Below are positions 36,661 through 61,118 of a DNA stretch of 64,000 bases, in pieces; the stretch's first letter is position 1; each line of letters starts with the position of its first letter. Made by a program: the position numbers and the translations under genes. The notes below the pieces were generated by a model. That model was not told where the DNA came from, made no database searches, and saw nothing but the letters and a program-made list of their open reading frames with translations. The stretch is taken from contig CAZSTH010000001.1 of the NCBI GenBank assembly GCA_964609835.1, positions 34,087 through 98,086 on the forward strand, written 5' to 3'. Source of the stretch: an uncultured Thermoanaerobaculia bacterium (GTDB lineage Bacteria > Acidobacteriota > Thermoanaerobaculia > Thermoanaerobaculales > Sulfomarinibacteraceae).

Positions 36661-37671
36661 ATGAGTGACCGAATGTGGTACGTGGCCGTTGACGGACAGT
36701 CGATCGGACCCATGAGCGAGGCGGAGTTGGTGGACGCCCTGCAAGCGGGCTCCTACGCCCCTGACGTCCAGGTGTACTGCCAGGGCGTGACCGAGTGGGC
36801 AGCGGCCAACACGGTGCCGGCGCTCTCCGAGCACTCCCCACCGCCGCCACCGCCCACCGCCCGCAGAGGCTCGACCGCCGACGAGGTGGACTTCGAGATC
36901 CACGGCGAGGAGATGCAGTTCGTCGAGGTCGAGCTCGATCCGGGCGAGAGCGTGGTCGCCGAGGCCGGCGCCATGATGTACATGGGCGAGGGCATCGAGA
37001 TGGAGACTATCTTCGGCGACGGGGCGAAGCAGAACAGCTCTTTCGTCGACATGCTGGTCGGCGCCGGCAAGCGGGTACTCACCGGCGAGAGCCTGTTCAT
37101 GACGATCTTCGGCCACCGCGGCACCGGCAAGAGCCGGGTCGCCTTCGCCTCGCCGTATCCCGGGAAGATCATCCCAGTCAACCTCGCCCTCCACGGCAAT
37201 CAGATCATCTGCCAGAAGGACGCCTTCCTGTGCGCCGCCAAGGGGGTGTCGGTGAGCATCGCGTTCCAGAAACGGATCGGCACCGCGCTGTTCGGCGGCG
37301 AGGGCTTCATCATGCAGAAGCTCGAGGGCGACGGGCTGGCGTTCGTGCACGCAGGCGGCACCATCATCGAGCGTAAGCTCGGGCCGGGAGAGAGGCTGCG
37401 GGTCGATACCGGGTGCCTGGTGGCGTTGGAGTCGTCGGTCGACTACGACATCGAGTTCGTCCGCAGCGTCAAGTCCGCCATCTTCGGCGGCGAGGGCTTC
37501 TTCTTCGCCCGCCTGCAGGGCGCCGGCAAGGTCTGGCTGCAGTCGCTGCCATTCTCGCGCCTGGCCGGCCGCATCTGGCAGGCGGCACCGCAGACCGGCG
37601 GCCGCACCAAGGGCGAGGGCTCGGTCCTCGGCAAGATGGGCGGTATCGGCGGCTTCTTCGACGGCAGTTAA
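36661..37671 (+). CDS. GYF_2 (DUF4339)-domain / TIGR00266 (AIM24-like) fusion protein
   Basis: The N-terminal [22 protein letters not shown]...[12 protein letters not shown] resembles GYF_2. After a Pro-rich linker, [20 protein letters not shown]...[21 protein letters not shown]...[10 protein letters not shown] resembles AIM24/TIGR00266. Confidence 0.75.
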
Positions 37672-41958: not shown

Positions 41959-44073
41959 TCAGCCCACCAGCCAGGTGTCATCGACCGGATGATAGCTCGC
42001 CAGGCCCTCGCGGAGGCGTTCAAGCTCGTTGCCGGTCATCCGCGCGCAGCGTTCGCGCGTCGCCGCGATCATCGCCGCATCGCGGGCGAGGTCGGCAAAA
42101 CGAAAAGCTGCCGGACCCCACTGCCGGGTTCCCGTCAGCTCGCCCGGCCCGCGGAGACGGAGGTCAGCCTCCGCGATTTCGAAGCCGTCGCCGGTTTGGC
42201 ACACCGCCTCGAGGCGCTGGCGCGCGGCCTCGCCCGGCTCGTCATCGACCAGCAGGATGCACCAGGAGGCCCGCTCGCCGCGGCCGACCCGTCCGCGCAG
42301 CTGGTGGAGCTGGGACAGCCCGAAATGCTGCGCCGATTCGATCACCATCACAGTTGCCTCCGGCACGTCCACGCCGACCTCGACGACCGTGGTCGCGAGC
42401 AGGAGCCGATCGTCCCCCGAGCGGAACCGCGCCGTCACCAGCTCCCGTTCCTCGCGGCTCAGCCTGCCGTGGAGGATGCCGACACCGAACTCCGAAAACG
42501 CCTCCCGAACCTCGGCCTCGCGGTCCTCGATCGACGCCAGCTCGAGGTCCTCGTTGGCGTCGATGTGCGGACACACTATGAAGCCCCGCCCGCCCTCCTC
42601 GAGCTCACTGCGCAGGAAACGGTAGATGCGCGATCGGGCACCCACGGTCCTCAGCTCGGTCCGCACCGGCCGCCGGCCCGGTGGCATCTCGTCGACCAGC
42701 GACAGATCGAGATCGCCGTACACGGTCATCGTCAGGGAGCGCGGAATCGGCGTCGCCGTCATCACTAGCAGGTGCGGCGAATGCCCCTTGCGAAGCAGGG
42801 CAGTGCGTTGGGTGACGCCGAATCGGTGCTGCTCGTCGACCACCACCATCCCAAGCCTTCGGTAGATCACCGCCTCTTGAAACAGCGCGTGGGTGCCGAC
42901 AACCAACCGGATGGACCCATCCGCCACTCCACCGACCACCTGCCGGCGCTCCCGTGCGCTCAGGGAGCCGACCAGGAGCGCCGGCGGATACCCCGCCGTG
43001 TCGAGCACTTCCAGCGACCTCAGGTGCTGCTCGGCCAGGAGCTCGGTCGGCGCCATCATCGCCACCTGGAACCCGGCTTCGAGCACCAGAGACATAGCGA
43101 GAGCCGCAACCACGGTCTTGCCCGAGCCGACATCGCCCTGAACCAGGCGGGCCATGGGGCGCGGCCGCCCGAGGTCGGCTGCAATCTCGGCCACCACCCT
43201 CTCCTGAGCCGCTGTCAACCGGAACGGCAGCAGCGAGCGCACACCCCTGTCGGCCCCCCGCGCCGGCACCACCTGCGGCGCCTTCATGTCCCGACGCCGC
43301 CGCCGCGTACGCTCCACCGCGCACGCGTAGGCCATCAGCTCGTCGAATGCGAGCCGCGTGTGGGCTCCTGAACGACCTTCCTCGAGCGCATGCAGCGCCA
43401 CCTCCCGCGCCGCCGGGTCGGCGGGAAGCTGCGGTCGATGGAGCGCGACCAGGCTGTCCGCTATGCTCGGCAGTCCGGTGTCGCGCCGGATCGCGGCCGG
43501 CAGCGGGTCTAGGCAGCCGCTCGCCGCGACCAGGCATTGTTCAATCCACCGCCGCACGGCCCGTGATCCGAAGCGGCCGAGGCGGGGGTAGACCGGCACG
43601 ACACCTTCGGCGCCGTCCTCGCCGGGCTCGATCTCGGGGTTGACGAGCTCGAGGCCACCGCCGCGCCGGCGGCGGAGCCGTCCCCAGAGATAGAGCACGG
43701 GCTCGTTCTCGAGCCGGGCGCGGACCCACGGCTGATTGAACCACACAGCGGATAGGTGTGCGTGGCCGTCTTTGACCACTCCGTCCACGATGGTGAGCCG
43801 GCGCTTCGGGATGCGGCGCTCCCGGATCGCCGTGACGCGGCCGCGTACCAGCACCGGGCCACCCTCGCCCTGCAGCGAGTCGAGGCGCGCGACGCGGGAC
43901 CGGTCCTCCCACCGCCGGGGCAGAACGAACAGCAGATCCCGGACGGTCTTCAGGCGCTCGGCAGCGAGAGCCTCCGCCGATCGCGGGCCGATGCCCTTGA
44001 GCGCTGTCAGCGGGTCGTCGGGACCAAGCGGGCGGCCGCCGTCACTCAATCGCCGTTGGTCTCGAAGCGGCAC
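41959..44073 (-). CDS. recG: ATP-dependent DNA helicase RecG
   Basis: Wedge domain followed by GDVGSGKT, DEQHRFG, MTATPIPR and QLHQLRGRVGRG. An alternative TTG start at 44049 overlaps the upstream stop. Confidence 0.95.
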   Translation of the reverse strand: MPLRDQRRLSDGGRPLGPDDPLTALKGIGPRSAEALAAERLKTVRDLLFVLPRRWEDRSRVARLDSLQGEGGPVLVRGRVTAIRERRIPKRRLTIVDGVVKDGHAHLSAVWFNQPWVRARLENEPVLYLWGRLRRRRGGGLELVNPEIEPGEDGAEGVVPVYPRLGRFGSRAVRRWIEQCLVAASGCLDPLPAAIRRDTGLPSIADSLVALHRPQLPADPAAREVALHALEEGRSGAHTRLAFDELMAYACAVERTRRRRRDMKAPQVVPARGADRGVRSLLPFRLTAAQERVVAEIAADLGRPRPMARLVQGDVGSGKTVVAALAMSLVLEAGFQVAMMAPTELLAEQHLRSLEVLDTAGYPPALLVGSLSARERRQVVGGVADGSIRLVVGTHALFQEAVIYRRLGMVVVDEQHRFGVTQRTALLRKGHSPHLLVMTATPIPRSLTMTVYGDLDLSLVDEMPPGRRPVRTELRTVGARSRIYRFLRSELEEGGRGFIVCPHIDANEDLELASIEDREAEVREAFSEFGVGILHGRLSREERELVTARFRSGDDRLLLATTVVEVGVDVPEATVMVIESAQHFGLSQLHQLRGRVGRGERASWCILLVDDEPGEAARQRLEAVCQTGDGFEIAEADLRLRGPGELTGTRQWGPAAFRFADLARDAAMIAATRERCARMTGNELERLREGLASYHPVDDTWLVG

Positions 44074-44843
44074 TGGATCGTGCCGAAGACGACGGCGTCC
44101 CCGGGCGTTAGCGGCGCGGCGCGGCCCGCTACCAGCCGGACGCCGTTGACGAACGTCCCGTTCATGGTTCCCACGTCCTCGACGAGGCTGAAGGAACCGT
44201 CATCCTCGCGGCGAACGCGGGCATGCCGGCGCGAGATCGATCGCTTGCCATCCACCGGGGTCAGGTCCACGTCCGGCATGATCCCGGTGACCGGGTCGAT
44301 CCGGCCGATCGTTGTCTCCTTCGATTCCGACAGCGGGAAGGAGATCCCGCTCGAGACCTCCACCAACCGGGCATGCGGGTCGAGAGGGGCGGCCGGCGCC
44401 GGCTCCTTGATTCCCGACTCCTCGATGTCGACCTCGTGGCCCACCGCGTCCTCGAGCAGCTCGGTCGTCTGCTGCAGTCTCCGCACCAACTTGCGCATCA
44501 TGCGGATCGCGATCTCCGGGTTGTGCTTGAGAATGAACGTGAATGCGGACTGGTCGATCATCACCAGCTGGACGTCCTCCACGGCGTGCGCGGAAGCCGA
44601 TCGCGGGCGCTCGTCCTCGAGCATGCACATCTCGCCGAAGAAGTCGCCCTTGCCGAGGGTCGCGAGCACCTGCTCCCGGCCGCCGAGCCGTTTCCTGATC
44701 TCGACCTGACCGCCCTCGATCACGTACATCGCGAGGCCGAGGTCGCCCTCGGCAAAGATCACGCTGCCCTTCGGAAACTCGGTTCGCATCGGTTCCAGAG
44801 AGTCGTGGGTATCGCTCGTGGACTTGACCTTGAACTTCGCCAT
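44046..44843 (-). CDS. cyclic-nucleotide-binding domain / FHA domain protein
   Basis: The cNMP cassette GDFFGEMCML...RPRSASAHA carries the FGE..RSA phosphate-binding motif. The C-terminal FHA domain shows TTIGR...ISRRHARV...GTMNGTFVNG. Confidence 0.85.
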   Translation of the reverse strand: MAKFKVKSTSDTHDSLEPMRTEFPKGSVIFAEGDLGLAMYVIEGGQVEIRKRLGGREQVLATLGKGDFFGEMCMLEDERPRSASAHAVEDVQLVMIDQSAFTFILKHNPEIAIRMMRKLVRRLQQTTELLEDAVGHEVDIEESGIKEPAPAAPLDPHARLVEVSSGISFPLSESKETTIGRIDPVTGIMPDVDLTPVDGKRSISRRHARVRREDDGSFSLVEDVGTMNGTFVNGVRLVAGRAAPLTPGDAVVFGTIQCRFETNGD

Positions 44844-49559: not shown

Positions 49560-50420
49560 CTATGGGGCTCCGGGGGTCACCGCTCGACCGAGCCGCTCGA
49601 GACCGAACCGCCGCGACAGGATGCGGTCGCGAAGCCGGACCGGCAGCAGGGCCAGGAAGGGGAGCAACCGCGATCCCGATCCGAGGCGCAGCGTGTGCGG
49701 CGGGCGCTCGCCCGTCACCGCCGCGACCACTGCACGAGCGAACTCCTCGACGCCGATGGAACGGTGCTCCGAGAAGCGTGCGCGGGCCTCGATCGCGTCC
49801 TGAACCGTGCTGTAGACAGAGCCCTTCCGATAACGGTCGACCCCGCCCATTGCGGTCGTGCTGAAGCGGGTCGCGACTGCACCAGGCTGCACGGTCACGA
49901 CGTCGATCCCGAACGGAGCGAGCTCCATCCGCAGCGCATCCGAAAGCAGGTGGACCGCAGCCTTGGAGCCGCTGTAGGCGCCGCCGAACGGAGCCGCGAT
50001 GATTCCCGACGCGCTGCCGATGTTGACGATGGTGCCCGAGCCCGCACCGATCATGTGCGGAACCACGGCCTGCGTCACCGCCACCAGCCCGACGACGTTG
50101 GTCTCGAGCTGCCGCCGTAGCTCGGCCAGATCGAGCTCGGATACCGGACCGATCAGACCGTAACCGGCGTTGTTGACCACGATGTCGACCCGACCCGCCC
50201 ACTCGAGGCAGGATGCAACTGCAGCGTCGATCGTCGCCGGCGAGGTGACGTCGAGAGCCGCCGTCGCGACCGCCTCTCGCGCGATGTCGGCCAGGCTTTC
50301 CGGCCTCCTGGCTGTCGCCATCACCCGGTGACCCGCGACGGCGAACGCCCCCACCAGCTCGCGCCCGATCCCTGACGAGCAACCGGTCACCAGAGCGACC
50401 CGTTCAGCCGCGTTCGCCAT
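49560..50420 (-). CDS. short-chain dehydrogenase/reductase
   Basis: TGCSSGIG cofactor motif, NNAG, and YSGSKAA (YxxxK). Confidence 0.9.
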   Translation of the reverse strand: MANAAERVALVTGCSSGIGRELVGAFAVAGHRVMATARRPESLADIAREAVATAALDVTSPATIDAAVASCLEWAGRVDIVVNNAGYGLIGPVSELDLAELRRQLETNVVGLVAVTQAVVPHMIGAGSGTIVNIGSASGIIAAPFGGAYSGSKAAVHLLSDALRMELAPFGIDVVTVQPGAVATRFSTTAMGGVDRYRKGSVYSTVQDAIEARARFSEHRSIGVEEFARAVVAAVTGERPPHTLRLGSGSRLLPFLALLPVRLRDRILSRRFGLERLGRAVTPGAP

Positions 50421-50514: not shown

Positions 50515-53500
50515 ATGGGACCCCCCGAAGGTACCGAACCCACTTTCGAAGATCTCCGGGAACGGCCGCCGGCCGAAGCTGCCGGCGTCATCGCGCGCCA
50601 GCTGGTGGACGAAGACGCCCCACAGCGCCGGGACAGCCGACTGGTCGACCTCCTGGACGACCGCCGAGCCGGCGACCAGATCCTGGAGCACCTGCCGTTG
50701 GAGGCGCTGGAAACCCTGGCTCGGCGGTGTGCGGGGCGGTTGGATCCGTCGAGTCCGGAGCCGTCGAGCAACGCCGTCGCATGGCAGCTGCTGGACGTCC
50801 TCCGAAGGCGGGAGGTGCTGGTCCGGATCGCCGCGGACGGGACCGTCGACAGCTGGGCGGAGCTGCTGCTCGAGCTGGTGGAACGGTCGCACTTCACCTT
50901 CGCGCGCCTCTTCCAGCAGCGTGCCGCGGGCTACGGCGAGCGGCCCCTCTTCGAGCTTCCCGCCAACGGCGGCAGCCGCAAGGTCAGCTGGCGGCAAGCC
51001 TCGGGACGGGTCGACCTGATCGCCCGATCTCTGCTCGCGCTCACCGCAGCCACCGGACAGCAGCCGGTGGGCATCCTGTCCCGGAACCGGCTCGACATGG
51101 CGCTCGTCGATCTCGCCTGCCTGACCAGCGGCATCGTCAATGTCGTGGTACCGGCCAATGCGACCGAGACCGACGTCGCATTCATCCTCGAACACGCCGA
51201 TGTCGGTGCCGTCGTGGTCTCCGACCGCGAGCAGGTCCAGAAGATCCTCAACGTTCGTGATCGGCTGCCACGGCTGGGACCGTTGGTGGCCCTCGACCCC
51301 GCGGCGGCCGGGCGTCACGGCGCGATCGCCTTCGAGCAGCTGATGGCAAGATCGTCGGAGGTGGCACCGGAGCAGCTCGAGGAGCGCCGGAGCGCGCAGC
51401 GCGTCGACGACCTGGCGACCGTCATGTACACCTCGGGAACCACCGGCACCCCAAAGGGCATCTGCTTCACCCAGCGCAACATCGTGTCCAAGCGCTTCGC
51501 GCGGGCGCTCGCGCTGCCGGAGATCGGCGAGGGCGACCGCTTCCTCTGTTATCTACCGCTCTTCCACACCTTCGGCCGATTCCTCGAGATGACCGGCTGC
51601 GTGTTCTGGGGCGCCACCTACTGCTTCGCAGACGATCCGAGTGTCGAGACCCTGACGCGGCAGATGCGTGGCCTGGGCACCACGGTCTTCATCAGCGTGC
51701 CGATGAAGTGGATGCAGCTCTACGATCTCGTGCGGCAGAGCGTGGATGTGGTGGCGGCAACCGACGACGAGATCCGGACCGCCCTGCGCGAGGTGACCGG
51801 ACCCGCACTGCGTTGGGGCCTGTCCGCCGCCGGCTACCTCGACCCTGAGGTCTTCCACTTCTTCCAGCGCAACGGTGTCGAGCTGATGAGCGGCTTCGGC
51901 ATGACCGAAGCCACCGGCGGCATCACCATGACCCCGCCCGGGCACTACAAGGACGACTCGCTCGGGCCCGCGCTTCCCGGCGTCGAAACCGACCTCGCGG
52001 CCGACGGGGAGATGGTGATCCGCGGCCCGTATGTGATGCGCGGCTACCTCGACCCTCCGGACGGAGTGCCGTCCTTCGACGACCGCGGCTGGTTCCATAC
52101 CGGCGACCTCATGGAGCGCGACGAGGACGGCTACTACCGGATCGTCGACCGCAAAAAGGAGATCTACAAGAACATCCACGGCGAGACCATCGCCCCGCAG
52201 AAGATCGAGAACCTCTTCCGGGACTTCGACTCGGTGGGCAGGGTCTTCCTCGTCGGCGACCACCGTCCCTACAACACGGCCCTCGTCTATCCCAACCCTG
52301 AGTTCGAGGAGATCGACCTGGCGTCGCTTTCGCCCAATGATCTGAAGGACCACTTCAGGTCGTTGGTGGTGAGCGCCAACTCCTTCCTGGCGCCGTACGA
52401 GCGGATCATCGACTTCGCCATCATCGACCGCGACTTCGACGCCGACCGCGGCGAACTCACGCCCAAGGGCACCTACCGGCGCAAGAACATCGAGCGCGCC
52501 TTTTCCGACCGCATCAGCCTCCTCTACCGGCGCCGCACGCTGACGGTCGGCGGCGCGAACGTGGTGGTGCCCAACTGGTTCTTCCAGGCGCTGGGCATGA
52601 CGGCCCAGGATCTCATCGTCGACGGTGACGAGCTTCGGCTGCGGTCCGAGGGCACCACGCTGGCCATCCGCGCCGAGGGCGAGGGCGCGGTCAGGGTCGG
52701 CTCGGTGGTCTACACCCTGCAGCAGAAGGCCGTCGACCTCGGTCATCTCCTCTCGATTCCCCGCCTGTGGCTCGGCAACGAGGCGCTGGTTGGCTTCGCA
52801 CCGCTCGCCCCCGAGCAGCGCAACCGCCGCCGGCGGCGGCGGGTGTCCGCAGAATGGCTGCGGCGCACCAGTCCCTATCGCGCGAGAACCGCCGACGGTG
52901 ACGCCATCTCCGCGCTGATGAGGCGCCAGGAGGCGGAGCTCCGCGACGTCCACCAGGCCGCGCTCCTGCTGGCGAGCGACGACGAGGGGGTGGCGGTGCA
53001 GGCGGTCAGGATCCTTGACCACCTCCTTCACATCGACGACAGCGGGCTCAACGATTTCACGCTCAGGATCCTGCGGCGAGCGGCGGACTCACCGCTTGGC
53101 CGCGTCCGCCAGCGTGCCTTCCAGGTCCTGGCGTCGGTGGAGCTCGACTCCCGGTACCGGAACACACTGGCTCGCTTCTTCGACAACGGCCACAACGTCC
53201 TCGATGCCGAGACCATCTCGGTGCTCGTCGACCGCGACCTCACCTCCCACCAGATCGAATGCTTCATCGCCGAGGCCGAGTCGCGGTGGATCCGCGGCGC
53301 CGGCGGCGGCGCCGACTACGACGTCGTCCGCGCCATGTGTGCCTTTCTCGCCCGTTACGGTGCGGCACATCCGAGCCAGTATCGCCGCCTCCGAGGCTTC
53401 TTCACGCGATCGATGATGATCGCCTCCGACCAAACCGCTCGGGACATGGCGGCGGCCGGCAAGCGCGAGCTCGCCGACGGCTTCCGGCTGTGGCTCGGCG

Positions 53501-55269
53501 CCCCGTCCCGGGTCGCGGTCGACCCCGAGACCGACCTCGAGTACCGCTGGGAAGACGTCGTCGAGTTCTCTGACGAGGTGGACACCGAAACCAGGGACCG
53601 GATCCTCGACGCCTTGCGGACCACGCCGGTGTTGCGCGAGGCTTCGTTCCTGATCGGCACCGCTGCGCGACCGGTTCGGCTCGAGGACATCCTCCCTGGC
53701 GGCGTCTGGGTCCGCCTCCTCGGCACCTCTCACGGCAAGTCGGTCTATCGAGTCGCCGTGCGAACCCGCGACCGGGAGCAGTTCGACCTCGCCCTCAACC
53801 TCAACCACGACCTCTCTCCCGACGACGTTCAGGAGGAGATCAACTGGCTGATCGTCTGCAGCGAAAGCAACGGGCGCGGCCCCTTGGTGGAGGTCTTCGG
53901 CGGGTGGTGGCACGAACATCATCTGTGGACCGAGGAGTTCATTCCCGGAGAGACGCTCGACAGGGCGCTGGCGCGGCTCGCGCGCAAGCATGCCGAACAG
54001 CCGGAGCGGATGACCCTGTGGTGGCCCTTCGCAGCCTGGGCGGCCGTCAGCGCCTACGTCGACTTCTGGAACCGCACCGGGCGTCGCCTGGTGGTGGCGG
54101 ATCCCTCGCCTGCGAACGTCATTGTCCCGCTGCACGACTACCACACCGGAGCGCGGCTGGTGTCGATCTCCTCGCGCGCTCCCTTCGACTCCCTTCCGAC
54201 CATGCTGCGGAGCTTCCAACACCATTTCATCGCGCCGGCCGAGGCGGCTCACCCGGAGCTTCGGGGCCTCGCCGGGTGGCAGGTCCTGTTCTCGGCGGTG
54301 CTCGAGGTGATCGGCGTCGAGGGCGGCGCCGCCGAGCTGCGGGCGGTCCTCGAAGCCTCAACCAGCGAGGATGCCGAGATGGCAGCCAGCCTCGAGGAGT
54401 TCCTGAGCGCGGTCGGAAAGCGCGGCTTCCTGCCGCGGAGGCTCTTCTTCGCTGCCAAGCGATACCACCGCTGGGAGGAGCTCAACCCCGACGCCACCTT
54501 GAGCGCTCGCGCGAGGACCCTCCAGGAGATCTACCAGACCTACGACCTCGGCGAGCTGGACGCAGTTTTACCGGAGGCGAGAGCGCGCTTCTTCCGCGAG
54601 ACCGTGCTGCAGAACGCCTGCGGCGAGCTGGTGGCCGGGCTCGAGGAGCTGATCAGCCGGCTCCGCTGTGCCGAGCTCGCTCGGGACGAGATGAGCGCCG
54701 CGGTTGCCGACCTGCGCGCCCACCTCTCGCTCGCGCCGGAGGAGGACTACTTCCTCGCCCGCCTCTCCTATCCCCATCTCCGCCCGGACGACGAGGCCGA
54801 GTACGTCGAGGCGGCAGCCGGGGGCATCCAGCAGAGCGAGATGGTGGTCACGCACGAGGACTCCGAAGGCATGCGCTATCAGATCCGCCACGCCCTCAGC
54901 GCCAAGGAGGTGGGGCGCCTCCACCGGCTGTTCCTGACCGCCAAGCTGCCAGTCCAGTTCCGGCCGGAGCATCGTTTTCTGGTCGCCATCAGCGATCGCG
55001 GTAACCTCATCGGCGGGCTGTTTTACGAGCTCGAACCCGAGGCTCAAACCGCCCACATGGACAAGATCGTGGTCGCCGACGCGTTCCACGGGCGGGGCAT
55101 CGCTGCCAATTTGCTGGAGGAGCTCAAGCACCGGCTTCGAACCGGCGGGTGCGGCGCGCTAACCACGGGCTTCTTCCGCCCTCAGTTCTTCTACCGGATG
55201 GGTTTTAGCGTCGAGCGCCGCTACGCCGGGCTGTACCTCTCGCTGGTGGACGGCGGCGGGGAGGGGTGA
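50515..55269 (+). CDS. 1584-aa multidomain protein: acyl-adenylate-forming ligase (FACL-like) / helical and kinase-like middle region / C-terminal GNAT acyltransferase
   Basis: AMP-binding motifs MYTSGTTGTPKG, GFGMTEATG, GWFHTGDL and DRKKEIYK in the first ~690 aa. The middle contains EEFIPGETLD...VVADPSPANVIVP, resembling ABC1/UbiB-type kinases. The end has VADAFHGRGIAANLLEELK...MGF (GNAT). Confidence 0.85.
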   Translation: MGPPEGTEPTFEDLRERPPAEAAGVIARQLVDEDAPQRRDSRLVDLLDDRRAGDQILEHLPLEALETLARRCAGRLDPSSPEPSSNAVAWQLLDVLRRREVLVRIAADGTVDSWAELLLELVERSHFTFARLFQQRAAGYGERPLFELPANGGSRKVSWRQASGRVDLIARSLLALTAATGQQPVGILSRNRLDMALVDLACLTSGIVNVVVPANATETDVAFILEHADVGAVVVSDREQVQKILNVRDRLPRLGPLVALDPAAAGRHGAIAFEQLMARSSEVAPEQLEERRSAQRVDDLATVMYTSGTTGTPKGICFTQRNIVSKRFARALALPEIGEGDRFLCYLPLFHTFGRFLEMTGCVFWGATYCFADDPSVETLTRQMRGLGTTVFISVPMKWMQLYDLVRQSVDVVAATDDEIRTALREVTGPALRWGLSAAGYLDPEVFHFFQRNGVELMSGFGMTEATGGITMTPPGHYKDDSLGPALPGVETDLAADGEMVIRGPYVMRGYLDPPDGVPSFDDRGWFHTGDLMERDEDGYYRIVDRKKEIYKNIHGETIAPQKIENLFRDFDSVGRVFLVGDHRPYNTALVYPNPEFEEIDLASLSPNDLKDHFRSLVVSANSFLAPYERIIDFAIIDRDFDADRGELTPKGTYRRKNIERAFSDRISLLYRRRTLTVGGANVVVPNWFFQALGMTAQDLIVDGDELRLRSEGTTLAIRAEGEGAVRVGSVVYTLQQKAVDLGHLLSIPRLWLGNEALVGFAPLAPEQRNRRRRRRVSAEWLRRTSPYRARTADGDAISALMRRQEAELRDVHQAALLLASDDEGVAVQAVRILDHLLHIDDSGLNDFTLRILRRAADSPLGRVRQRAFQVLASVELDSRYRNTLARFFDNGHNVLDAETISVLVDRDLTSHQIECFIAEAESRWIRGAGGGADYDVVRAMCAFLARYGAAHPSQYRRLRGFFTRSMMIASDQTARDMAAAGKRELADGFRLWLGAPSRVAVDPETDLEYRWEDVVEFSDEVDTETRDRILDALRTTPVLREASFLIGTAARPVRLEDILPGGVWVRLLGTSHGKSVYRVAVRTRDREQFDLALNLNHDLSPDDVQEEINWLIVCSESNGRGPLVEVFGGWWHEHHLWTEEFIPGETLDRALARLARKHAEQPERMTLWWPFAAWAAVSAYVDFWNRTGRRLVVADPSPANVIVPLHDYHTGARLVSISSRAPFDSLPTMLRSFQHHFIAPAEAAHPELRGLAGWQVLFSAVLEVIGVEGGAAELRAVLEASTSEDAEMAASLEEFLSAVGKRGFLPRRLFFAAKRYHRWEELNPDATLSARARTLQEIYQTYDLGELDAVLPEARARFFRETVLQNACGELVAGLEELISRLRCAELARDEMSAAVADLRAHLSLAPEEDYFLARLSYPHLRPDDEAEYVEAAAGGIQQSEMVVTHEDSEGMRYQIRHALSAKEVGRLHRLFLTAKLPVQFRPEHRFLVAISDRGNLIGGLFYELEPEAQTAHMDKIVVADAFHGRGIAANLLEELKHRLRTGGCGALTTGFFRPQFFYRMGFSVERRYAGLYLSLVDGGGEG

Positions 55270-56144
55270 TGTCCGGAATCACGATCCGACGTGCGGGAAG
55301 GCTCTTCGATAGCCTCGAGAGCCGGTGGCTGAAGATGGCGACCCAGCGCCGGATCGCGTCGTCGCTGGTGGTGGCCTTCGTGATCGCCCTGCTGCTGGTG
55401 GAGCTGCGGCGTCTCGGCCCGCTCCCGGCGACGATGGAGCGCTGGCTGCCGAGCAACCACTTCGAGGCGATCCTGGTGCCCTTCACTCTGCTGCTGCTCG
55501 CGGAGGTCGTGTCGCTGGTCTTCGCGCTCGCCCAGTCGGTGGCGATGGCTGTCGGCAAGCAGCTGGAGATCATGTCGCTGATTCTGATCCGTCAGTCATT
55601 CAAGGAGCTCACCTTTCTCCCCGAGCCGATCGTGTGGGATCTCTCCTCGGCGGAGGTCACCCGCCGAGTGCTCTACATTCTCTCGGACTCCGCCGGCGCC
55701 CTCGTGATCTTCGGGCTGCTGGTGGTCTACTTCAGGCTCCAGGCCCACCAACCCATCTCGCAGGACCCCGACGAGCGCTCGAGCTTCGTAGGCGCCAAGA
55801 AGCTGATCGCGCTGGTGTTGCTTGCCAGCATCGTCGTCATCGGCGGCGAGGTTGTGTGGGCGTGGGTGGTCGGGGCCGGAGCTCCCTCGTTCTTCGAGAT
55901 CTTCTACACCGTGCTGATCTTCGCCGACGTCTTCATCGTCCTCACCTCGCTGCGCTACAGCGTCGCCTACGCCGTCGTCTTCCGCTACTTCGGCTTCGCG
56001 GTGGCGACCGTCCTGATCCGCCTCGCGCTCACCGCACCGCGCATCGTCGACGCCGGCCTCGGGGTGGCGGCAACCCTGTTCGCGATCGCGCTCACCTGGG
56101 TCTACAACAAGACCATGGCGGCGGTCGCGGAAGCCACCACCTGA
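55266..56144 (+). CDS. integral membrane protein of unknown function, translationally coupled to the giant ligase/GNAT gene
   Basis: The start (GTG 55266 or ATG 55269) overlaps stop TGA 55267..55269. About 6 TM segments. No family recognised. Confidence 0.7.
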   Translation: MMSGITIRRAGRLFDSLESRWLKMATQRRIASSLVVAFVIALLLVELRRLGPLPATMERWLPSNHFEAILVPFTLLLLAEVVSLVFALAQSVAMAVGKQLEIMSLILIRQSFKELTFLPEPIVWDLSSAEVTRRVLYILSDSAGALVIFGLLVVYFRLQAHQPISQDPDERSSFVGAKKLIALVLLASIVVIGGEVVWAWVVGAGAPSFFEIFYTVLIFADVFIVLTSLRYSVAYAVVFRYFGFAVATVLIRLALTAPRIVDAGLGVAATLFAIALTWVYNKTMAAVAEATT

Positions 56145-56224: not shown

Positions 56225-59200
56225 CTACCGATAACCGAACAGCATGGTGTAGACGATCAGCGCGATCAGGGTCAGGCCGATGCCGAGCGCCGTGAAGCCG
56301 ATGATCCTGGCGGCGCGCGCCAGTCCGGGATGGGCGGGCCCGGCGATCCGCTCCTCGAGCTGCTCGGGAGTCGCCCGGCCGATGAACTCGTCATACTCGG
56401 CAGGCTTGTCGTGCTTGAGCTCCTCGACGCCGACCCGACCGGTGAAGATCACCGGGTCCATCGGGAACTTGTCCGGGCGGAAGTGCGTGTTGAAGAAGTG
56501 GATGGTGAAGATGAAGGCGACCGCCAGCAGGGCCTCGTCGGAGTGGATGATGGTGGCGACGTTGATCGCCCAACCCGGCAAAACGATGGTGAAGAGCTCG
56601 GGGAACCACAGCACGAGGCCGGTGGAACCGATCACGAAAACGCCCCAGAAGACCGCAAAGTAGTCGAACTTCTCCCAGTAGGTGTAGCGCCCGTAGACCG
56701 GTCGCGGACCGCGGCCGAAGAACCAGCGAATCGACTCGAAGACCTGACGGATGTCGGTGAAGTTGAACATCAACGAGTTTTTGTCGAAGATGAAACCGAA
56801 CAGGCCCTTGCCCGAGCCGCGGAAGCCGTGCCACAGCTGGCGCAGGTGGTAGAGGAAGAGCACCGACAGGACGACGGCGCCGATGCGGTGCAGCAGCGCC
56901 ATGGTGTCGAAGCCCCCGAACAGCTGCGAAACGACCATCGCCCAGCCCATGTACGAGAACTTGAGCGCCATGCCGGTCAGCGCGAGCGTGAAGAAGCTGA
57001 CGATCATCACGAAGTGCATGATGCGCTGGGTGAGCGAGAAGCGGCGGTAGAAGCGGGTCTCTGCGGCATTCTTGTGGGCGATCCACTGCTCCTTCGTTCG
57101 CCACAGCCGGAACAGCCACAACATCGTGTGGAGGATGGCGAAGCTCAAGGTCCCCACCAGCAGCGTGGTCATGAAGATGAACGTCCAGTACAGGAACGGG
57201 TACTTGTCCTTGTCGTGGTGGGTCGCGTGGGTCAGGTAGCCCGCGAACTGGCGATGGGCCTTGGGGTGGCAGGTGGCGCAGGTCGCGACCACGTTCCAGT
57301 GGCTGAGGGTGGACTCGGGATCGTCCGACGGCAGGATGTTGTGGGTGCCGTGGCAGTCGTAGCACTTGGCCGCACCCTCGGAGCCGAGTTGCGTGATCTT
57401 GCCGTGATGGGTGTCGAAGAAGGTCTCGGCGAAGTCCTCGTGGCATTGACCGCACTGGTTCATCATCATGAAGCGGAAGCCCTGAGCATCGACCCGCGTG
57501 ATCTCGTGCGACATGTGGCAGCTCTCGCAGGTGGGTAGCTGCTCGGTCGTCGTGACGTTGTCAGGCCAGTGGATCGAGGCACGAAACTCCTCCTCGATCC
57601 CCTTGTGGCAGGCGCCGCATGTGGAGGTGATGTTGGCGGGGTTGACCGACGAGCCGGGATCGTCCTGCGGCAGCGCGGTGTGCGCAGTGTGGCAATCGAC
57701 GCAGCTCGCCGACACCACCAGGCCGCTGCCGATCAGTCCCCGTCCGTGCGTGCTTTCGAGATAGGTCTCGAAGATGTCGCGGTCGTCGCCAAGCCGCTCG
57801 GCCGCCGCCTTTCCGGCAGCGTGGCAGGCCCCGCACAATTCGGGGACGTTGCGGGCGTAGGTCGGCGAGGTCGGCAGCCGGTAGCCGGTCGTCGCGTGGG
57901 AGTCGCCGTGGCAGCTCTCGCAGGTCGGCGCGTCGGCGTCGCCGGCCGCCGCGAGCTGGCCGTGGCGGCTGAGGTCGTGCTCCTGCACCTGCTGCGCGTG
58001 GCAGATCGCGCAGTCCACCGGTGATTCGATGGTTGCGCACGCGCGCTCCGGGTGGCCGGGCGCCACCTCGGTGTGGCATTGGGCGCAGGCGACGGCGGCA
58101 TGCTCCGACAAGCCCAGGACCTCCTGGTCGATGAAGAGCGACACCGTGGTGCCGTCGCGAATCGTTTCCAGCTCCGGGTTCCCGTGGCACTCGAGGCAGC
58201 GCCGCGAGCTCGCCTCCCGCGGCGAGATCGGACGGCGACGGATCTTGTGCGGCTGGTGGCACTCGACGCACGACGGGATCTTGTGGGGCTCCTCCTCCCA
58301 CAGCCGTCCCTCGACGACCTTGACGTGGACCTCCTCGATCCTCGCGTGGCACTGCATGCACATCCCGGCCACGTTCTCGCGGGCGATCGACGACGCCGGG
58401 TTGTTGTGGTCGAGAATGTCGTGGGCGGTGTGGCACGAGGTGCAGACCGCGGTCACCGTCAGACCCTTCTCGAACAACGCCTCGCCGTGGACCGACATCG
58501 AGAAGTTCTCGAGGATCCGGTCCTGCGGGATCTCGTGCTGCAGCGACACCTCGGTGCCCTCGCGATGGCAGCGGCCGCACAGCAGCGGCACGTTGACCAC
58601 GTTGGTGGGTGCCTGCGGATCCGTGTGGGGCAGGATCGCGTGGTGGTCGTGGCAGATGATGCAGTTGGGGGCGACCGGATCGCCTTTGACCGCCGCGCGA
58701 CCGTGCAGCGACGCGCGGTTCTGCGCCGCCACCTCGGCGTGGCACTCTCCGCAGGCCTGGATCTGTGCCAGCGGTTCCACCGGCGCCACGACCTCGTGGC
58801 CGCTGTGGCAGTCGACACAGGTGGCCGCGGAGCGGCCGCTGACGACCTTCGCGTGGGGGCTGCGATCCACCTGTTGGAGAGCCCGGGCGTGACAGCGCGC
58901 GCACAGCGAGTCGACCCGGGAACCGTGGGTCCGCGCCTCGGTGTCCGAGGATGACCGCACGTCGTGGGTGCCGTGGCAGCTCGTGCACGCGGCGGCCGGC
59001 GAGGTCGGGTCCCGCGCCCAGCTCCGGTGCGGACCCGCGGCCAGCTCCGCCGCCATGTCGTCGTGGCACATGGCGCAATCCACCGCTTCCAGCTCCTCGC
59101 CGTGCGGCAGCTCCGCTCCGTCGAGCTCCATGTGGCAGTCGATGCACGCGAAGTCGGCGTGCACCGACGCGGCATAGCCGGCCGGATGAACGAAAACGGA

Positions 59201-59377
59201 GACCTCGGCGCCACCACGAAAGCCGGTCAGGTCGGGGTCTTCGTGGCACATCAAGCAGTCGTCGTTCTCCTGCGCGCGGACTGGGGAGACCCATCCGATG
59301 AGCACGATGCACGTCAACACCACGAACGCGCGGACCGCAGCCCCGTGGGGATTGATGCTGGCGCCTCGACCGATCAT
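56225..59377 (-). CDS. 23-haem c-type cytochrome fused to a C-terminal dihaem-type cytochrome b membrane domain (CbcL-like architecture)
   Basis: I counted 23 CxxCH motifs after a signal peptide (…WVSPVRA/QEND). The C-terminus has 5-6 TM segments with an FdnI/HydC-like pattern (RFSLTQRIMHF..LTG, LLHRIG, IIHSDEA, FTIHFFNTHF). Start set to ATG 59377, preceded by GGAGGAGGCGAGGAG; the ORF-track start is 59431. Confidence 0.9.
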   Translation of the reverse strand: MIGRGASINPHGAAVRAFVVLTCIVLIGWVSPVRAQENDDCLMCHEDPDLTGFRGGAEVSVFVHPAGYAASVHADFACIDCHMELDGAELPHGEELEAVDCAMCHDDMAAELAAGPHRSWARDPTSPAAACTSCHGTHDVRSSSDTEARTHGSRVDSLCARCHARALQQVDRSPHAKVVSGRSAATCVDCHSGHEVVAPVEPLAQIQACGECHAEVAAQNRASLHGRAAVKGDPVAPNCIICHDHHAILPHTDPQAPTNVVNVPLLCGRCHREGTEVSLQHEIPQDRILENFSMSVHGEALFEKGLTVTAVCTSCHTAHDILDHNNPASSIARENVAGMCMQCHARIEEVHVKVVEGRLWEEEPHKIPSCVECHQPHKIRRRPISPREASSRRCLECHGNPELETIRDGTTVSLFIDQEVLGLSEHAAVACAQCHTEVAPGHPERACATIESPVDCAICHAQQVQEHDLSRHGQLAAAGDADAPTCESCHGDSHATTGYRLPTSPTYARNVPELCGACHAAGKAAAERLGDDRDIFETYLESTHGRGLIGSGLVVSASCVDCHTAHTALPQDDPGSSVNPANITSTCGACHKGIEEEFRASIHWPDNVTTTEQLPTCESCHMSHEITRVDAQGFRFMMMNQCGQCHEDFAETFFDTHHGKITQLGSEGAAKCYDCHGTHNILPSDDPESTLSHWNVVATCATCHPKAHRQFAGYLTHATHHDKDKYPFLYWTFIFMTTLLVGTLSFAILHTMLWLFRLWRTKEQWIAHKNAAETRFYRRFSLTQRIMHFVMIVSFFTLALTGMALKFSYMGWAMVVSQLFGGFDTMALLHRIGAVVLSVLFLYHLRQLWHGFRGSGKGLFGFIFDKNSLMFNFTDIRQVFESIRWFFGRGPRPVYGRYTYWEKFDYFAVFWGVFVIGSTGLVLWFPELFTIVLPGWAINVATIIHSDEALLAVAFIFTIHFFNTHFRPDKFPMDPVIFTGRVGVEELKHDKPAEYDEFIGRATPEQLEERIAGPAHPGLARAARIIGFTALGIGLTLIALIVYTMLFGYR

Positions 59378-59418
59378 CTCCTCGCCTCCTCCGCGCCCGA
59401 TCCCTCGAGCTCCCGCCG

Positions 59419-59447
59419 AATGTATCTTCATGTGACGAATTATTCAA
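59419..59447 (-). promoter_or_regulatory. putative sigma-70-type promoter TTGAAT-17-TACATT for the 23-haem gene
   Basis: On the minus strand the -35 is at 59447..59442 and the -10 at 59424..59419, in the most AT-rich stretch of the divergent intergenic region. Confidence 0.35.
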
Positions 59448-59660
59448 GTTTGTCGTTTGCGGCGAATTGAGATAAAGACTCTTTTCAATAACCGGTTCCT
59501 GAGCCTCCGGGACGCTTTCGCGATCAGGGACCGTGTCGGGCGGCGTTCGATCGCCGATCCTGGACCCTCGCCACCGGTTCCACAGGGCGGTCTGGTCCAC
59601 GCGGCACCGGTGATGGTATTCTCCGGTCACGGTCGAGCAAATGTGCAAGGGAGAGCCGTC

Positions 59661-61118
59661 GTGATCCGAGATTTCCTGGACCGCCGAGGCCCCGGCAAGC
59701 TGTTCAATTACGCCAACAACCTCGTCACGATCACGGGAACCGTCCTGACCACGATGACGGGGCTGCTGATCGTCATCTTCGTCGTGGTGCAGTTCTTCGG
59801 CCACCTCGACAACCCCTACATCGGAATCTTCGCCTACCTGGTCCTCCCCGTGTTCTTCGTCGCGGGTTTGCTCATGATTCCCGCCGGAATGTGGTGGCGC
59901 CGCCGACGCCTGGTTCGCAGCGGCGCCTCCGCCGCCGAACGCTCCGCCTACCCGACCCTCGATTTCAACCGGCCGGAGATCCGACGCATCGCGCTCGTGG
60001 TGCTGGGGCTGACCGTCATCAACATCGTGATCCTCGGGTCGGCCTCCCTGTTCGCCGTCGAGCACATGGAGACCGTCCGGTTCTGCGGCGAAACCTGCCA
60101 CACCGTGATGCAGCCGGAGTACACGGCCTACCAGAAATCCCCCCACTCCCGGGTCGCCTGCGTCGACTGCCACATCGGGCCCGGGACATCGTGGTTCGTC
60201 AAATCCAAGCTCGACGGCCTCCGCCAGGTCTGGCGAACGGCTCTCGACAGCTACGACCGGCCGATTTCGACGCCGCTGCACACCCTGCGCCCGGCGCGGG
60301 AGACCTGCGAACAATGCCACTGGCCGACCAAGCATTTCGGCGACAAGCTACGGATCTTCTCGCGCACGGCCAGCGACGAGGCGAACACGCCGTCCTACAC
60401 CGCGCTGCTGCTCAAGACCGGCGGCGGCAGCCTCGACCTCGGTCGCCACGGCGGCATCCACTGGTGGCACATCTACTCCGACAATCGCATCCGATACGTC
60501 TCCGACGAGTCGCGGGATCACATCAGCTGGGTGGAGCTCCGTACCGCCGCGGGCGAGGTGCGAACCTACACGAGAGACGGCGACCCGCCACCCTCACCGG
60601 CGGAGATCGAAGCAGCCAAGATCATGGACTGCGTCGACTGCCACAATCGTCCGACCCACACATTTCCAGTCCCCGCAAAGGCCGTCGACAGCCTCCTCGA
60701 CACCCATCCGCGGCTCCGGTCTCTGCCCTATTTCAAGCGCGAGGCGGTGGCGGCAATCGAGGGCGAGTACCCGACCCGCGCGGACGGTATCGCGGCCGTG
60801 ACCTCAGCGCTCGAAGAGTTCTACCGGCAACAGTATCCAAGCCTCGCCACGACCGACTGGGAGATCATCCGGTCCGCGGCGCGGCAGGCGGCAGAGATCT
60901 ACGGGCGCATCGTGTTTCCGGCCATGGACACCGATTGGGAAACTCATCCCAACCACATCGGACACGACGACTTCCCCGGCTGCTGGCGCTGCCACGACGA
61001 CGAGATGTCGACGTCGGACGGCGAGCACTCGATCCCGATGGATTGCGAGAATTGCCATGTCTTCCTGGTCCAGGACAGCCCGAACGCTCCCGAGTTCGCG
61101 TATGCGCTCGAAGAGTGA
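59661..61118 (+). CDS. membrane-anchored hexahaem c-type cytochrome (NapC/NirT-related, ImcH-like layout)
   Basis: Three N-terminal TM helices, then CGETCH, CVDCH, CEQCH, CVDCH, CWRCH and CENCH. Start set to GTG 59661 with an AAGGGAGAG SD; alternatives are ATG 59613 or 59457. Confidence 0.85.
   Translation: MIRDFLDRRGPGKLFNYANNLVTITGTVLTTMTGLLIVIFVVVQFFGHLDNPYIGIFAYLVLPVFFVAGLLMIPAGMWWRRRRLVRSGASAAERSAYPTLDFNRPEIRRIALVVLGLTVINIVILGSASLFAVEHMETVRFCGETCHTVMQPEYTAYQKSPHSRVACVDCHIGPGTSWFVKSKLDGLRQVWRTALDSYDRPISTPLHTLRPARETCEQCHWPTKHFGDKLRIFSRTASDEANTPSYTALLLKTGGGSLDLGRHGGIHWWHIYSDNRIRYVSDESRDHISWVELRTAAGEVRTYTRDGDPPPSPAEIEAAKIMDCVDCHNRPTHTFPVPAKAVDSLLDTHPRLRSLPYFKREAVAAIEGEYPTRADGIAAVTSALEEFYRQQYPSLATTDWEIIRSAARQAAEIYGRIVFPAMDTDWETHPNHIGHDDFPGCWRCHDDEMSTSDGEHSIPMDCENCHVFLVQDSPNAPEFAYALEE

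Follow-up and report, generated by a model that had tools for sequence, protein, structure and literature searches.

The window analysed here, a 64,000-nucleotide stretch from an uncultured Thermoanaerobaculia bacterium (assembly GCA_964609835.1, contig CAZSTH010000001.1, positions 34,087 to 98,086 of the forward strand), carries a gene that joins an adenylating ligase of the fatty-acyl-coenzyme A (CoA) type, a large scaffold with a degenerate protein-kinase-like fold and a C-terminal GNAT acyltransferase in one chain. We tentatively read its product as a self-contained enzyme for acyl activation and N-acyl transfer built on a non-catalytic scaffold, and give this reading somewhat less than an even chance. 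The open reading frame (ORF; 50515..55269, + strand) runs from ATG to stop through 1584 amino acids (aa) with no internal stop, its GC content by codon position (GC1 0.70, GC2 0.46, GC3 0.88) is like that of other real genes in this window of 68% GC, and an identical protein is found in a public sequence collection on a 99-kb NCBI contig; together, these observations mark a real gene and no frame-error product. A sequence-only reading of the same DNA had also proposed a single continuous gene, and a split through sequencing errors is ruled out by the uninterrupted frame, the GC3 value and the same layout in every complete homologue examined. The fusion of ligase and GNAT in one chain is likewise borne out, as Pfam finds both domains and the layout recurs among complete homologues. 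Of the three-part architecture described in that reading, the ORF, the ligase, the GNAT domain and the kinase-like fold stand, whereas the ABC1/UbiB label given to the middle part does not.

The ligase assignment is well anchored in domain and motif evidence. The large N-terminal domain of the ligase occupies aa 133-512 (50911..52050, + strand; PF00501 AMP-binding, E 3.3e-63, 214 bits against a cut-off of 29.9) and is followed by the ligase C-terminal domain at aa 554-673 (52174..52533, + strand; PF23562 AMP-binding_C_3, E 6.6e-12, 46.3 bits against a cut-off of 20.8). Core motifs can be read along both domains, with A3 as YTSGTTGTPKG, A5 as GFGMTEATGG, A7 as HTGD, A8 as DRKK and the A10 lysine as K651, which lies within ELTPKG; the C-terminal domain also bears the ACSL-type signature GWFHTGD...DRKKEIYK. 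Conservation was counted in a close subfamily of 25 homologues and in a wide family of 62 members reaching down to 25% identity. The adenylation residues G308, K314, E465, D531, R546 and K651 are retained in 59-62 of the 62 wide-family members (D531 and R546 in all 62, K651 in 61), K547 being the exception among the core-motif residues, and T306-G315, E465 and T467 are invariant in the alignment of close homologues. With Pfam domains over threshold, core motifs present and catalytic residues intact, the earlier call of a fatty-acyl-CoA-ligase-type adenylating enzyme is confirmed.

Placing this ligase within a named group is another matter. Its best NCBIfam ligase models are FadD11 and long-chain-fatty-acid-CoA ligase, and all 25 equivalog models listed (FadD11, FadD3, MenE and others) score under their curated cut-off, FadD11 reaching 220 bits against 950; TIGR03098 is among the weaker matches. 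The closest solved ligase structures are remote (E ~1e-24) and comprise luciferases, carboxylic acid reductase, FadD5/FadD8 and Thermus LC-FACS. Given these sub-cut-off scores and remote structures, the ligase part belongs to the adenylate-forming superfamily, is of the long-chain ligase type and falls outside every named orthologue group. It is preceded by an N-terminal extension (aa 1-132; 50515..50910, + strand) without a Pfam match, the first ~55 aa of which are variable in the alignment and are followed by a conserved 'AWxLLDxxRR...W'.

At the other end of the chain, the GNAT domain proposed earlier (aa ~1427-1576; 54793..55242, + strand) is supported by Pfam, by its acyl-CoA-binding motif and by an AlphaFold2 (AF2) model that matches many GNAT structures. 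PF00583 Acetyltransf_1 scores 36.7 bits against a cut-off of 20.7 over aa 1481-1565, and PF13508 is also above threshold (30.5 bits against 27). Motif A, which binds the CoA pyrophosphate and has the form R/Q-x-x-G-x-G/A, reads H1525-G-R-G1528-I-A1530 in the window protein and R-x-x-G-x-A in most close homologues (R in 20/25, G in 23/25, A in 24/25); Gly1528 is kept in 56 of the 62 wide-family members. When PDB sequences were searched with the family profile, Tetrahymena GCN5 came out best (E 1.3e-4), ahead of AAC3-I and further small GNATs, with PCAF/KAT2A lower. Foldseek superposes the domain on GCN5 (1qst) with a root-mean-square deviation (rmsd) of 2.5 Å and on PCAF (4nsq) with 2.4 Å, and the GCN5/PCAF structures together span 2.4-2.6 Å over ~130-140 residues.

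The region between ligase and GNAT, aa ~690-1480, has no Pfam or NCBIfam match, and phmmer and profile searches of PDB sequences returned matches to the GNAT domain only, none to the middle. Its structural evidence comes from Foldseek searches against the PDB alone, the fold being visible by structure and not by sequence. We built AF2 models of aa 691-1584 from a 54-sequence alignment (m7d9b6ff45b41; predicted local distance difference test, pLDDT, 89.3; predicted template-modelling score, pTM, 0.81) and of aa 1000-1425 (m066519d7f6a5; pLDDT 92.3, pTM 0.89). The middle had been described as a single, mostly helical kinase segment; the models instead resolve four units. A small beta domain past the ligase (aa ~697-735; 52603..52719, + strand), with strands at model residues 10-45 and no family match, is followed by a HEAT-like helical solenoid of nine consecutive helices (aa ~792-994; 52888..53496, + strand), a region in which two divergent family members have weak Pfam HEAT_2/HEAT matches. 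Next come a degenerate protein-kinase-like fold (aa ~1000-1246, with the bilobal alpha/beta part at aa ~1059-1246; 53512..54252, + strand), assigned from AF2 and Foldseek, and a helical extension (aa ~1255-1418; 54277..54768, + strand) modelled with pLDDT >90, which leads to the GNAT domain and packs against it. The extension is rich in residues that are invariant in the close alignment, for example R1316, W1320, T1342 and Y1343. The high pTM suggests that beta domain, solenoid, kinase-like core, extension and GNAT would be packed as one rigid body rather than as beads on a string.

With the model of aa 691-1584 as query, the top Foldseek match was Vps34 through its helical-plus-kinase unit (E 3e-5 over more than 600 columns, template-modelling (TM) score 0.2-0.3, rmsd ~19 Å), followed by the kinase domains of JAK, FGFR, Eph and CK2 and by GNATs including GCN5 and PCAF. 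Pfam found no PI3_PI4_kinase match, and the isolated domain is closer to eukaryotic protein kinases and Bud32 than to Vps34. The model of aa 1000-1425 gave 178 PDB matches at E ≤ 1e-3, and the best 50 are almost all protein kinases, among them PRPK/Bud32 (TM 0.52-0.55), JAK1/2/3, EphA3, FGFR2, PRPF4B and YopO, with one antibiotic phosphotransferase, corramycin phosphotransferase, beside them. Elements follow the kinase order in the AF2 model (beta1-3, alphaC, beta4-5, hinge, alphaD, alphaE, catalytic loop), with TM scores of up to 0.55 on the target.

This fold places the two segments on which the ABC1/UbiB label had been based. EEFIPGETLD (aa 1140-1149) forms the end of beta5, the hinge and the start of alphaD, and VVADPSPANVIVP (aa 1193-1205) forms beta6, the catalytic loop and beta7, so that the hinge and catalytic-loop positions were rightly recognised and the family was not. 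Hallmarks of ABC1/UbiB proteins are the KxGQ motif, an Ala-rich nucleotide loop, H-x-D-x4-N and DFG. A regular-expression scan of the kinase-like region found no KxGQ, A[AS]A[AS], HxDxxxxN or D[FLYW]G, only D1196-x4-N1201; PF03109 was unmatched at E ≤ 1 in the full protein and at E ≤ 10 in 20 members; and COQ8/UbiB structures are absent from the best 50 fold matches. We therefore dropped the assignment, the fold neighbours being PRPK/Bud32, JAK, Eph, FGFR and Vps34. None of the Pfam kinase families matched any of the 20 members searched at E ≤ 10.

The kinase-like domain has kept a Gly-loop (G1070xxHGK1075), an alphaC glutamate (Glu1108), the hinge EEFIPGE (aa 1140-1146) and the catalytic-loop remnant D1196-x4-N1201. 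The beta3 lysine is absent, the sequence there being A1093-x-N1095, and the position of the DFG aspartate is taken by Ser1217, a serine kept in 23/25 close and 52/62 wide-family members. The catalytic-loop aspartate D1196 is retained in 20/25 and 17/62 proteins, N1201, at the Mg-binding asparagine position, in 21/25 and 48/62, and Glu1108 in 25/25 and 26/62. Loss of the beta3 lysine and the DFG aspartate together with a variable catalytic aspartate makes the domain look like a pseudokinase, perhaps one with a remaining capacity to bind a phosphate-bearing ligand, so that the earlier suggestion of a pseudokinase or sensing module, made on a replaced histidine and the lack of a clear DFG, was a fair one. 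Across the wide family, the best-conserved positions of the domain are R1079, T1084, G1129, W1185, N1201, P1205, D1208 (56/62) and S1217, and five arginines (R1067, R1079, R1085, R1187 and R1214) are invariant in the close subfamily. Conserved residues thus surround the former active cleft, which indicates that some site there is still under selection.

It could be argued that such a site belongs to a working enzyme. WNK kinases carry their lysine in the Gly-rich loop, and K1075 occupies this loop here; the kinase-like domain would then be an atypical enzyme with relocated residues, or a SelO/SidJ-like AMPylase or ligase, and the protein would have three catalytic activities. The conservation of N1201, D1208 and S1217 around the former active site agrees with this idea, as does the D1196-x4-N1201 pair, which is held in 20-21 of the 25 close homologues and changes jointly from D/N to E/D in three. 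However, conservation of G1074 and K1075 does not extend to the wide family, D1196 and the alphaC glutamate are lost from most of its members, the beta3 lysine and the DFG aspartate are missing, and there is no sequence-level match to any kinase family. We consider a third catalytic activity very improbable.

The same architecture is widely distributed. With aa 691-1584 as query, 160 relatives were recovered, of which those that are complete measure ~1500-1565 aa and have AMP-binding and GNAT domains, and a scan with one genome per GTDB species found a relative in at least 360 genomes; full-length homologues are 44-71% identical to the window protein. Within the Acidobacteriota, carriers belong to the Thermoanaerobaculia (Candidatus Sulfomarinibacteraceae, with the best match at 71% identity, and Polarisedimenticolaceae), the Holophagae and the Vicinamibacterales. 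Best matches and synteny with the related locus L001 also make a Thermoanaerobaculia bacterium close to Sulfomarinibacteraceae the most likely source of the window. Many Gemmatimonadota and a few metagenome-assembled genomes (MAGs) labelled Myxococcota or Methylomirabilota carry it as well, and a divergent branch, with one member named 'FadD15', occurs in Eisenbacteria, Zixibacteria, Krumholzibacteriota and Calditrichota. Six divergent members checked with Pfam keep both AMP-binding and GNAT domains. One carrier, Acidobacteria bacterium Mor1 (CP011806, locus L085), is cultured, which makes experiments feasible. A profile of the scaffold only (aa 791-1425), run against 1.84 billion representatives, gave 387 matches (clusters at 50% identity); the 150 matches listed among them all have the same architecture or are fragments, with complete proteins of 1450-1710 aa and the middle module at ~750-1440, and an ancestor of the scaffold in another context was not seen among these 150, a set that leaves out the ~88 weakest matches (E 1e-10 to 1e-3).

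Database records obscure this family in several ways. Annotations are generic, either 'GNAT family N-acetyltransferase' or 'long-chain acyl-CoA synthetase'. Matches of 856-923 aa on long contigs had raised the possibility of stand-alone scaffold-GNAT proteins; the one inspected (P0034) comes from a long-read assembly and has AMP-binding fragments directly upstream, which points to frameshifts. The orthologue in a long-read MAG (L002, 6005-10772) is called as three ORFs of 469, 186 and 923 aa, probably through frameshift errors, and such frameshifted records make free-standing 'GNAT' proteins of ~860-920 aa look more numerous in databases than they are. The 90% identity cluster that contains the window protein (50515-55266) has a 56-aa fragment as its representative, so that searches of representatives only would hide the full protein. 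Taken as a whole, the family is large and kept across Acidobacteriota, Gemmatimonadota and several candidate phyla, a widespread domain architecture assembled from known folds.

Which chemistry would such a chain perform? We propose that the domain of the ACSL/FadD type first converts a free carboxylic acid, most likely a fatty acid, into its adenylate and then into the CoA thioester, as its intact ligase motifs suggest. The GCN5-like GNAT would then use the acyl-CoA made by the ligase to acylate an amine, a step for which the intact acyl-CoA-binding motif and the fusion itself speak. Judging from its fold and its residue losses, the ~790-aa middle would have no role in phosphorylation; its HEAT-like arm and pseudokinase would form a rigid body with the GNAT and act as a docking site for the acceptor or as a gate that controls the GNAT in response to a phosphate-bearing ligand, be it a nucleotide or CoA. 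The pairing of a metabolite-making with a metabolite-using enzyme is the commonest reason for enzyme fusion. Since the ligase makes the very class of metabolite that the GNAT consumes, and the fusion is invariant, use of the acyl-CoA in cis is the simplest reading. If the two activities are indeed coupled, this would be the first known single-chain enzyme that activates a fatty acid and transfers it to nitrogen, and bacteria would have a new route to N-acyl products or to protein fatty-acylation.

Several observations weigh against this proposal. The GNAT might draw acetyl-CoA from the general pool and not the product of the ligase, and no conserved carrier protein, transporter or biosynthetic neighbours accompany the gene across related loci. 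Identity to GCN5 is modest (19-22%), and Foldseek ranks antibiotic N-acetyltransferases slightly above GCN5, though with worse superposition. The catalytic glutamate of GCN5, on strand beta4, is part of an 'AE' pair that aligns to A1513-H1514, placing His1514 at the catalytic position; this histidine is found in 25/25 close homologues, and in the wide family the position is His in 27, Tyr in 10, Leu in 8 and other residues in the rest (n=62). Such poor conservation makes the catalytic mechanism of the GNAT, and even its activity in all members, uncertain.

The variable general-base position can also be taken to mean that the C-terminal modules are purely regulatory, with the GNAT as a non-catalytic acyl-CoA or CoA sensor and the pseudokinase as a nucleotide sensor that together tune the ligase allosterically. 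A precedent exists in Pat, where a catalytically inactive enzyme domain works as an acetyl-CoA-binding regulator (PMC8556138), and the predicted rigid packing of GNAT and kinase-like domain would suit such a role. On the other hand, motif A and many residues of the GNAT core and C-terminus (TTGFFRP, for instance) show no variation within the close subfamily, a degree of conservation that exceeds the needs of ligand sensing alone, and many active GNATs do not have a single essential general base (PMC8556138). A sensor without catalysis is in our view improbable.

Under the proposed activate-then-transfer scheme, we lean slightly towards a protein lysine as the acceptor rather than a small molecule or lipid. 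This preference comes from GCN5, a protein lysine acetyltransferase, leading the sequence matches to solved structures and from HEAT repeats and pseudokinases being typical protein-docking modules, and the ligase's own A10 lysine, K651, would be one possible target. In the most far-reaching version, which we regard as doubtful, the protein would be a bacterial single-chain 'metabolic writer' that generates fatty acyl-CoA itself and fatty-acylates specific protein lysines, its own or those of partner proteins such as central-metabolism enzymes, with the GCN5-like domain mounted on the HEAT/pseudokinase scaffold. Protein acylation would then be tied directly to the supply of free fatty acid and ATP, and the protein would bring the architectural types of bacterial lysine acyltransferases to six and be a compact analogue of the eukaryotic arrangement of a local acyl-CoA synthetase and Gcn5 on the Tra1 pseudokinase scaffold.

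A modification directed at K651 could also serve to switch the ligase off. In this alternative, the protein would be a fatty-acid-CoA ligase with a built-in switch of the Pat/AcuA type: at high acetyl- or acyl-CoA, the GNAT would acylate or acetylate K651, either within its own chain or between the subunits of an oligomer, and the dead kinase, as the counterpart of AcuB or of Pat's inactive NDP-forming synthetase domain, would sense nucleotide or CoA status. Such a self-regulating ligase fits the evidence nearly as well as activation followed by transfer, and we treat it as a genuine but minority possibility. K651 is retained almost without exception, GCN5, the top GNAT sequence match among solved structures, fits as well, and high conservation in single-gene contexts is what a housekeeping metabolic enzyme would display. 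Type I bacterial lysine acetyltransferases, which classically modify AMP-forming ligases, have the same topology, with their C-terminal GNAT placed behind a large, degenerate domain resembling a nucleotide enzyme (PMC8556138). AcuA binds AcsA in a stable 1:1 complex (PMC11255334), and AcuB acts as a separate adenine-nucleotide sensor in the AcsA-AcuA system (PMC13121692); both provide precedents for the parts that would here share one chain.

The gene neighbourhood contributes to this question on both sides. Clustering of neighbours over 86 loci revealed no universal partner gene, and only one neighbour is widely shared, a citrate (Si)-synthase of the PRK09569 type, found adjacent or within ~6 kb in 32 of ~83 related loci (L003, L004, L027-L029, L038, L040-L045, L047-L053, L055, L056, L058-L062, L066, L067, L072-L075 and L078). 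These loci are mostly from Gemmatimonadota, with some from Acidobacteriota, and the gene lies up- or downstream on either strand. Citrate synthase consumes acetyl-CoA, and its proximity would agree with a feedback of acetyl-CoA on the activation of fatty acids; in this window, however, citrate synthase is absent. Nor is a sirtuin or deacetylase gene present in the window or recurring in related loci. The A10 region, ELTPKGTxRRK, has no PX4GK motif, which surrounds the target lysine in known Pat/AcuA substrates, and the Pat of Mycobacterium tuberculosis (Rv0998) and AcuA are absent from the PDB profile matches, unlike GCN5. We also know of no case in which a modifying enzyme is fused permanently, 1:1, to its own target, which counts against a built-in switch. 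Should the ligase nevertheless switch itself, the family would be a new architectural type among bacterial lysine acetyltransferases, with a pseudokinase recruited as a bacterial metabolic sensor. Either way, whether as a self-switching ligase or as the enzyme for activation and transfer that we favour, it offers a concrete case for the role of a bacterial pseudokinase domain.

Closer to the gene, the neighbours point in another direction. Immediately downstream, a 292-aa ORF with a GTG start (55266..56144, + strand) overlaps the stop codon of the ligase-GNAT gene by 4 nt and encodes an integral membrane protein with 6-7 predicted transmembrane segments. It has no Pfam or NCBIfam match; its homologues form an orphan family, 60-85% identical across metagenomes and all 'hypothetical', and it is better conserved than the protein encoded before it. 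The membrane ORF lies 3' of the large gene in 11 related loci, and it may be co-transcribed with, and a partner of, the ligase-GNAT protein in the clade of the window. Upstream and divergent, at a distance of 94 nt, is a short-chain dehydrogenase/reductase (SDR; 49560..50420, - strand; PF00106, E 2e-48), a pairing that recurs in 12 related loci; neither neighbour was found outside this clade. Elsewhere, an AsmA/DUF748-like gene stands directly upstream on the same strand in 9 Gemmatimonadota loci (e.g. L041, 1969-3891, + strand), genes for a PlsC-type acyltransferase and a major facilitator superfamily (MFS) transporter adjoin at L003 (1933-4682), and an MFS gene adjoins at L087 (704-1903). 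These last neighbours are a possible hint of a connection to membrane lipids. No beta-oxidation or carrier protein genes accompany the large gene, and a scan of the locus for promoters and terminators gave nothing exceeding shuffled expectation.

From this perspective, the protein could be a synthase whose GNAT joins the fatty acid activated by the ligase to a small metabolite or lipid. Candidate products would be N-acyl amino acids, N-acyl amines and N-acylated head groups of aminolipids or lyso-lipids, with the adjacent membrane proteins handling the product. Ligases that work with GNAT-fold N-acyltransferases are known as two-enzyme systems, namely ACSM with glycine N-acyltransferase and the N-acyl amino acid synthases linked to an exosortase-associated ligase, and TIGR03098 among the weaker ligase matches is in keeping with them. 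The translationally coupled membrane protein and the divergent SDR in the window's clade, the AsmA/DUF748-like, PlsC-type and MFS genes of other lineages, and the antibiotic and amine N-acetyltransferases among the GNAT fold matches all agree with such a product. Yet the neighbours vary by lineage and none is universal, the 1584-aa protein has no predicted membrane segment, GCN5 outscores small-molecule GNATs by sequence profile, and a HEAT/pseudokinase scaffold of ~790 aa is hard to justify if the acceptor is a small molecule. We judge a dedicated small-molecule or lipid synthase unlikely.

The window holds further genes of note, and it shares synteny with the related locus L001, including a 265-aa protein with cyclic-nucleotide-binding and FHA domains (44046-44843, - strand). 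Beyond the membrane ORF lies a 1068-aa protein (56225-59431, - strand) in which many multihaem cytochrome c modules (c7, c3, paired CXXCH) are joined to a membrane domain at the C-terminus that resembles cytochrome b561, and its neighbour is a NapC/NirT-type cytochrome (59457-61118, + strand); a large homologue of the multihaem protein recurs in 21 related loci. A 1308-aa sigma-54-dependent activator (10017-13943, - strand) is matched by Pfam over its last ~300 aa only (AAA+, HTH_8), with ~1000 N-terminal residues unmatched, and a 948-aa protein (37715-40561, - strand) has an M20 peptidase match only at aa 634-942 and no match in its N-terminal ~630 aa. A protein with GYF_2 and AIM24 domains is encoded at 36661-37671 (+ strand).

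Compared with known systems, each part of the ligase-GNAT protein has relatives. With ACSL, FadD15 and FadD11, it shares the adenylation core motifs, PF23562 and the signature GWFHTGD...DRKKEIYK; it differs in equivalog scores far under the cut-offs, in a 130-aa N-terminal extension and in ~900 extra C-terminal residues. With GCN5 and PCAF, it shares a GNAT domain whose top profile match among solved structures is GCN5 (E 1.3e-4) and which superposes at 2.4-2.6 Å rmsd, whereas identity is ~20%, His1514 stands in for the catalytic glutamate, a bromodomain is missing and the context is bacterial. PRPK/Bud32 (TM 0.52-0.55) and Vps34, the top match for the C-terminal 894 aa, resemble the middle in fold; there is no sequence-level relation to either, the beta3 lysine and DFG aspartate are missing here, and the Vps34 superposition is loose (TM 0.2-0.3, rmsd ~19 Å). 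ABC1/UbiB (COQ8) proteins share the protein-kinase-like fold, a hinge of the E-x-I-x-G type and the D-x4-N remnant, in contrast to PF03109, KxGQ, the Ala-rich loop and DFG, none of which is found in this protein.

Fusions and pairs of ligases with acyltransferases offer the closest functional parallels. In the bifunctional Aas, a ligase is fused to its acyltransferase, which is of the PlsC type and is served by a route via the acyl carrier protein. Like Aas, ACSM with GLYAT and the exosortase-linked pairs consist of an adenylating ligase that feeds an acyltransferase; the latter two are separate proteins, and none of these systems, Aas included, has a HEAT/pseudokinase module. Pat/PatZ and the AcsA-AcuA-AcuB system share with our protein a C-terminal GNAT behind a large degenerate nucleotide-enzyme-like domain and a functional tie to an AMP-forming ligase. 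Here, however, the ligase is in the same chain and of the ACSL type rather than Acs, and HEAT-like and kinase-like units take the place of the domains that distinguish Pat types I-III, with no NDP-forming acyl-CoA synthetase, cyclic nucleotide (cNMP), ACT, NADP Rossmann or Bateman domain detected by Pfam. A ligase-pseudokinase-GNAT architecture is not part of the five-type scheme of bacterial GNAT acetyltransferases (PMC8556138), and full-text literature searches found no description of it, in agreement with the earlier statement that no characterised member is known. Each part of the protein thus comes from a known superfamily, and their combination is unlike any of the systems compared, from ACSL, Pat/AcuA and GCN5/PCAF to the atypical kinases, UbiB, ACSM/GLYAT and Aas.

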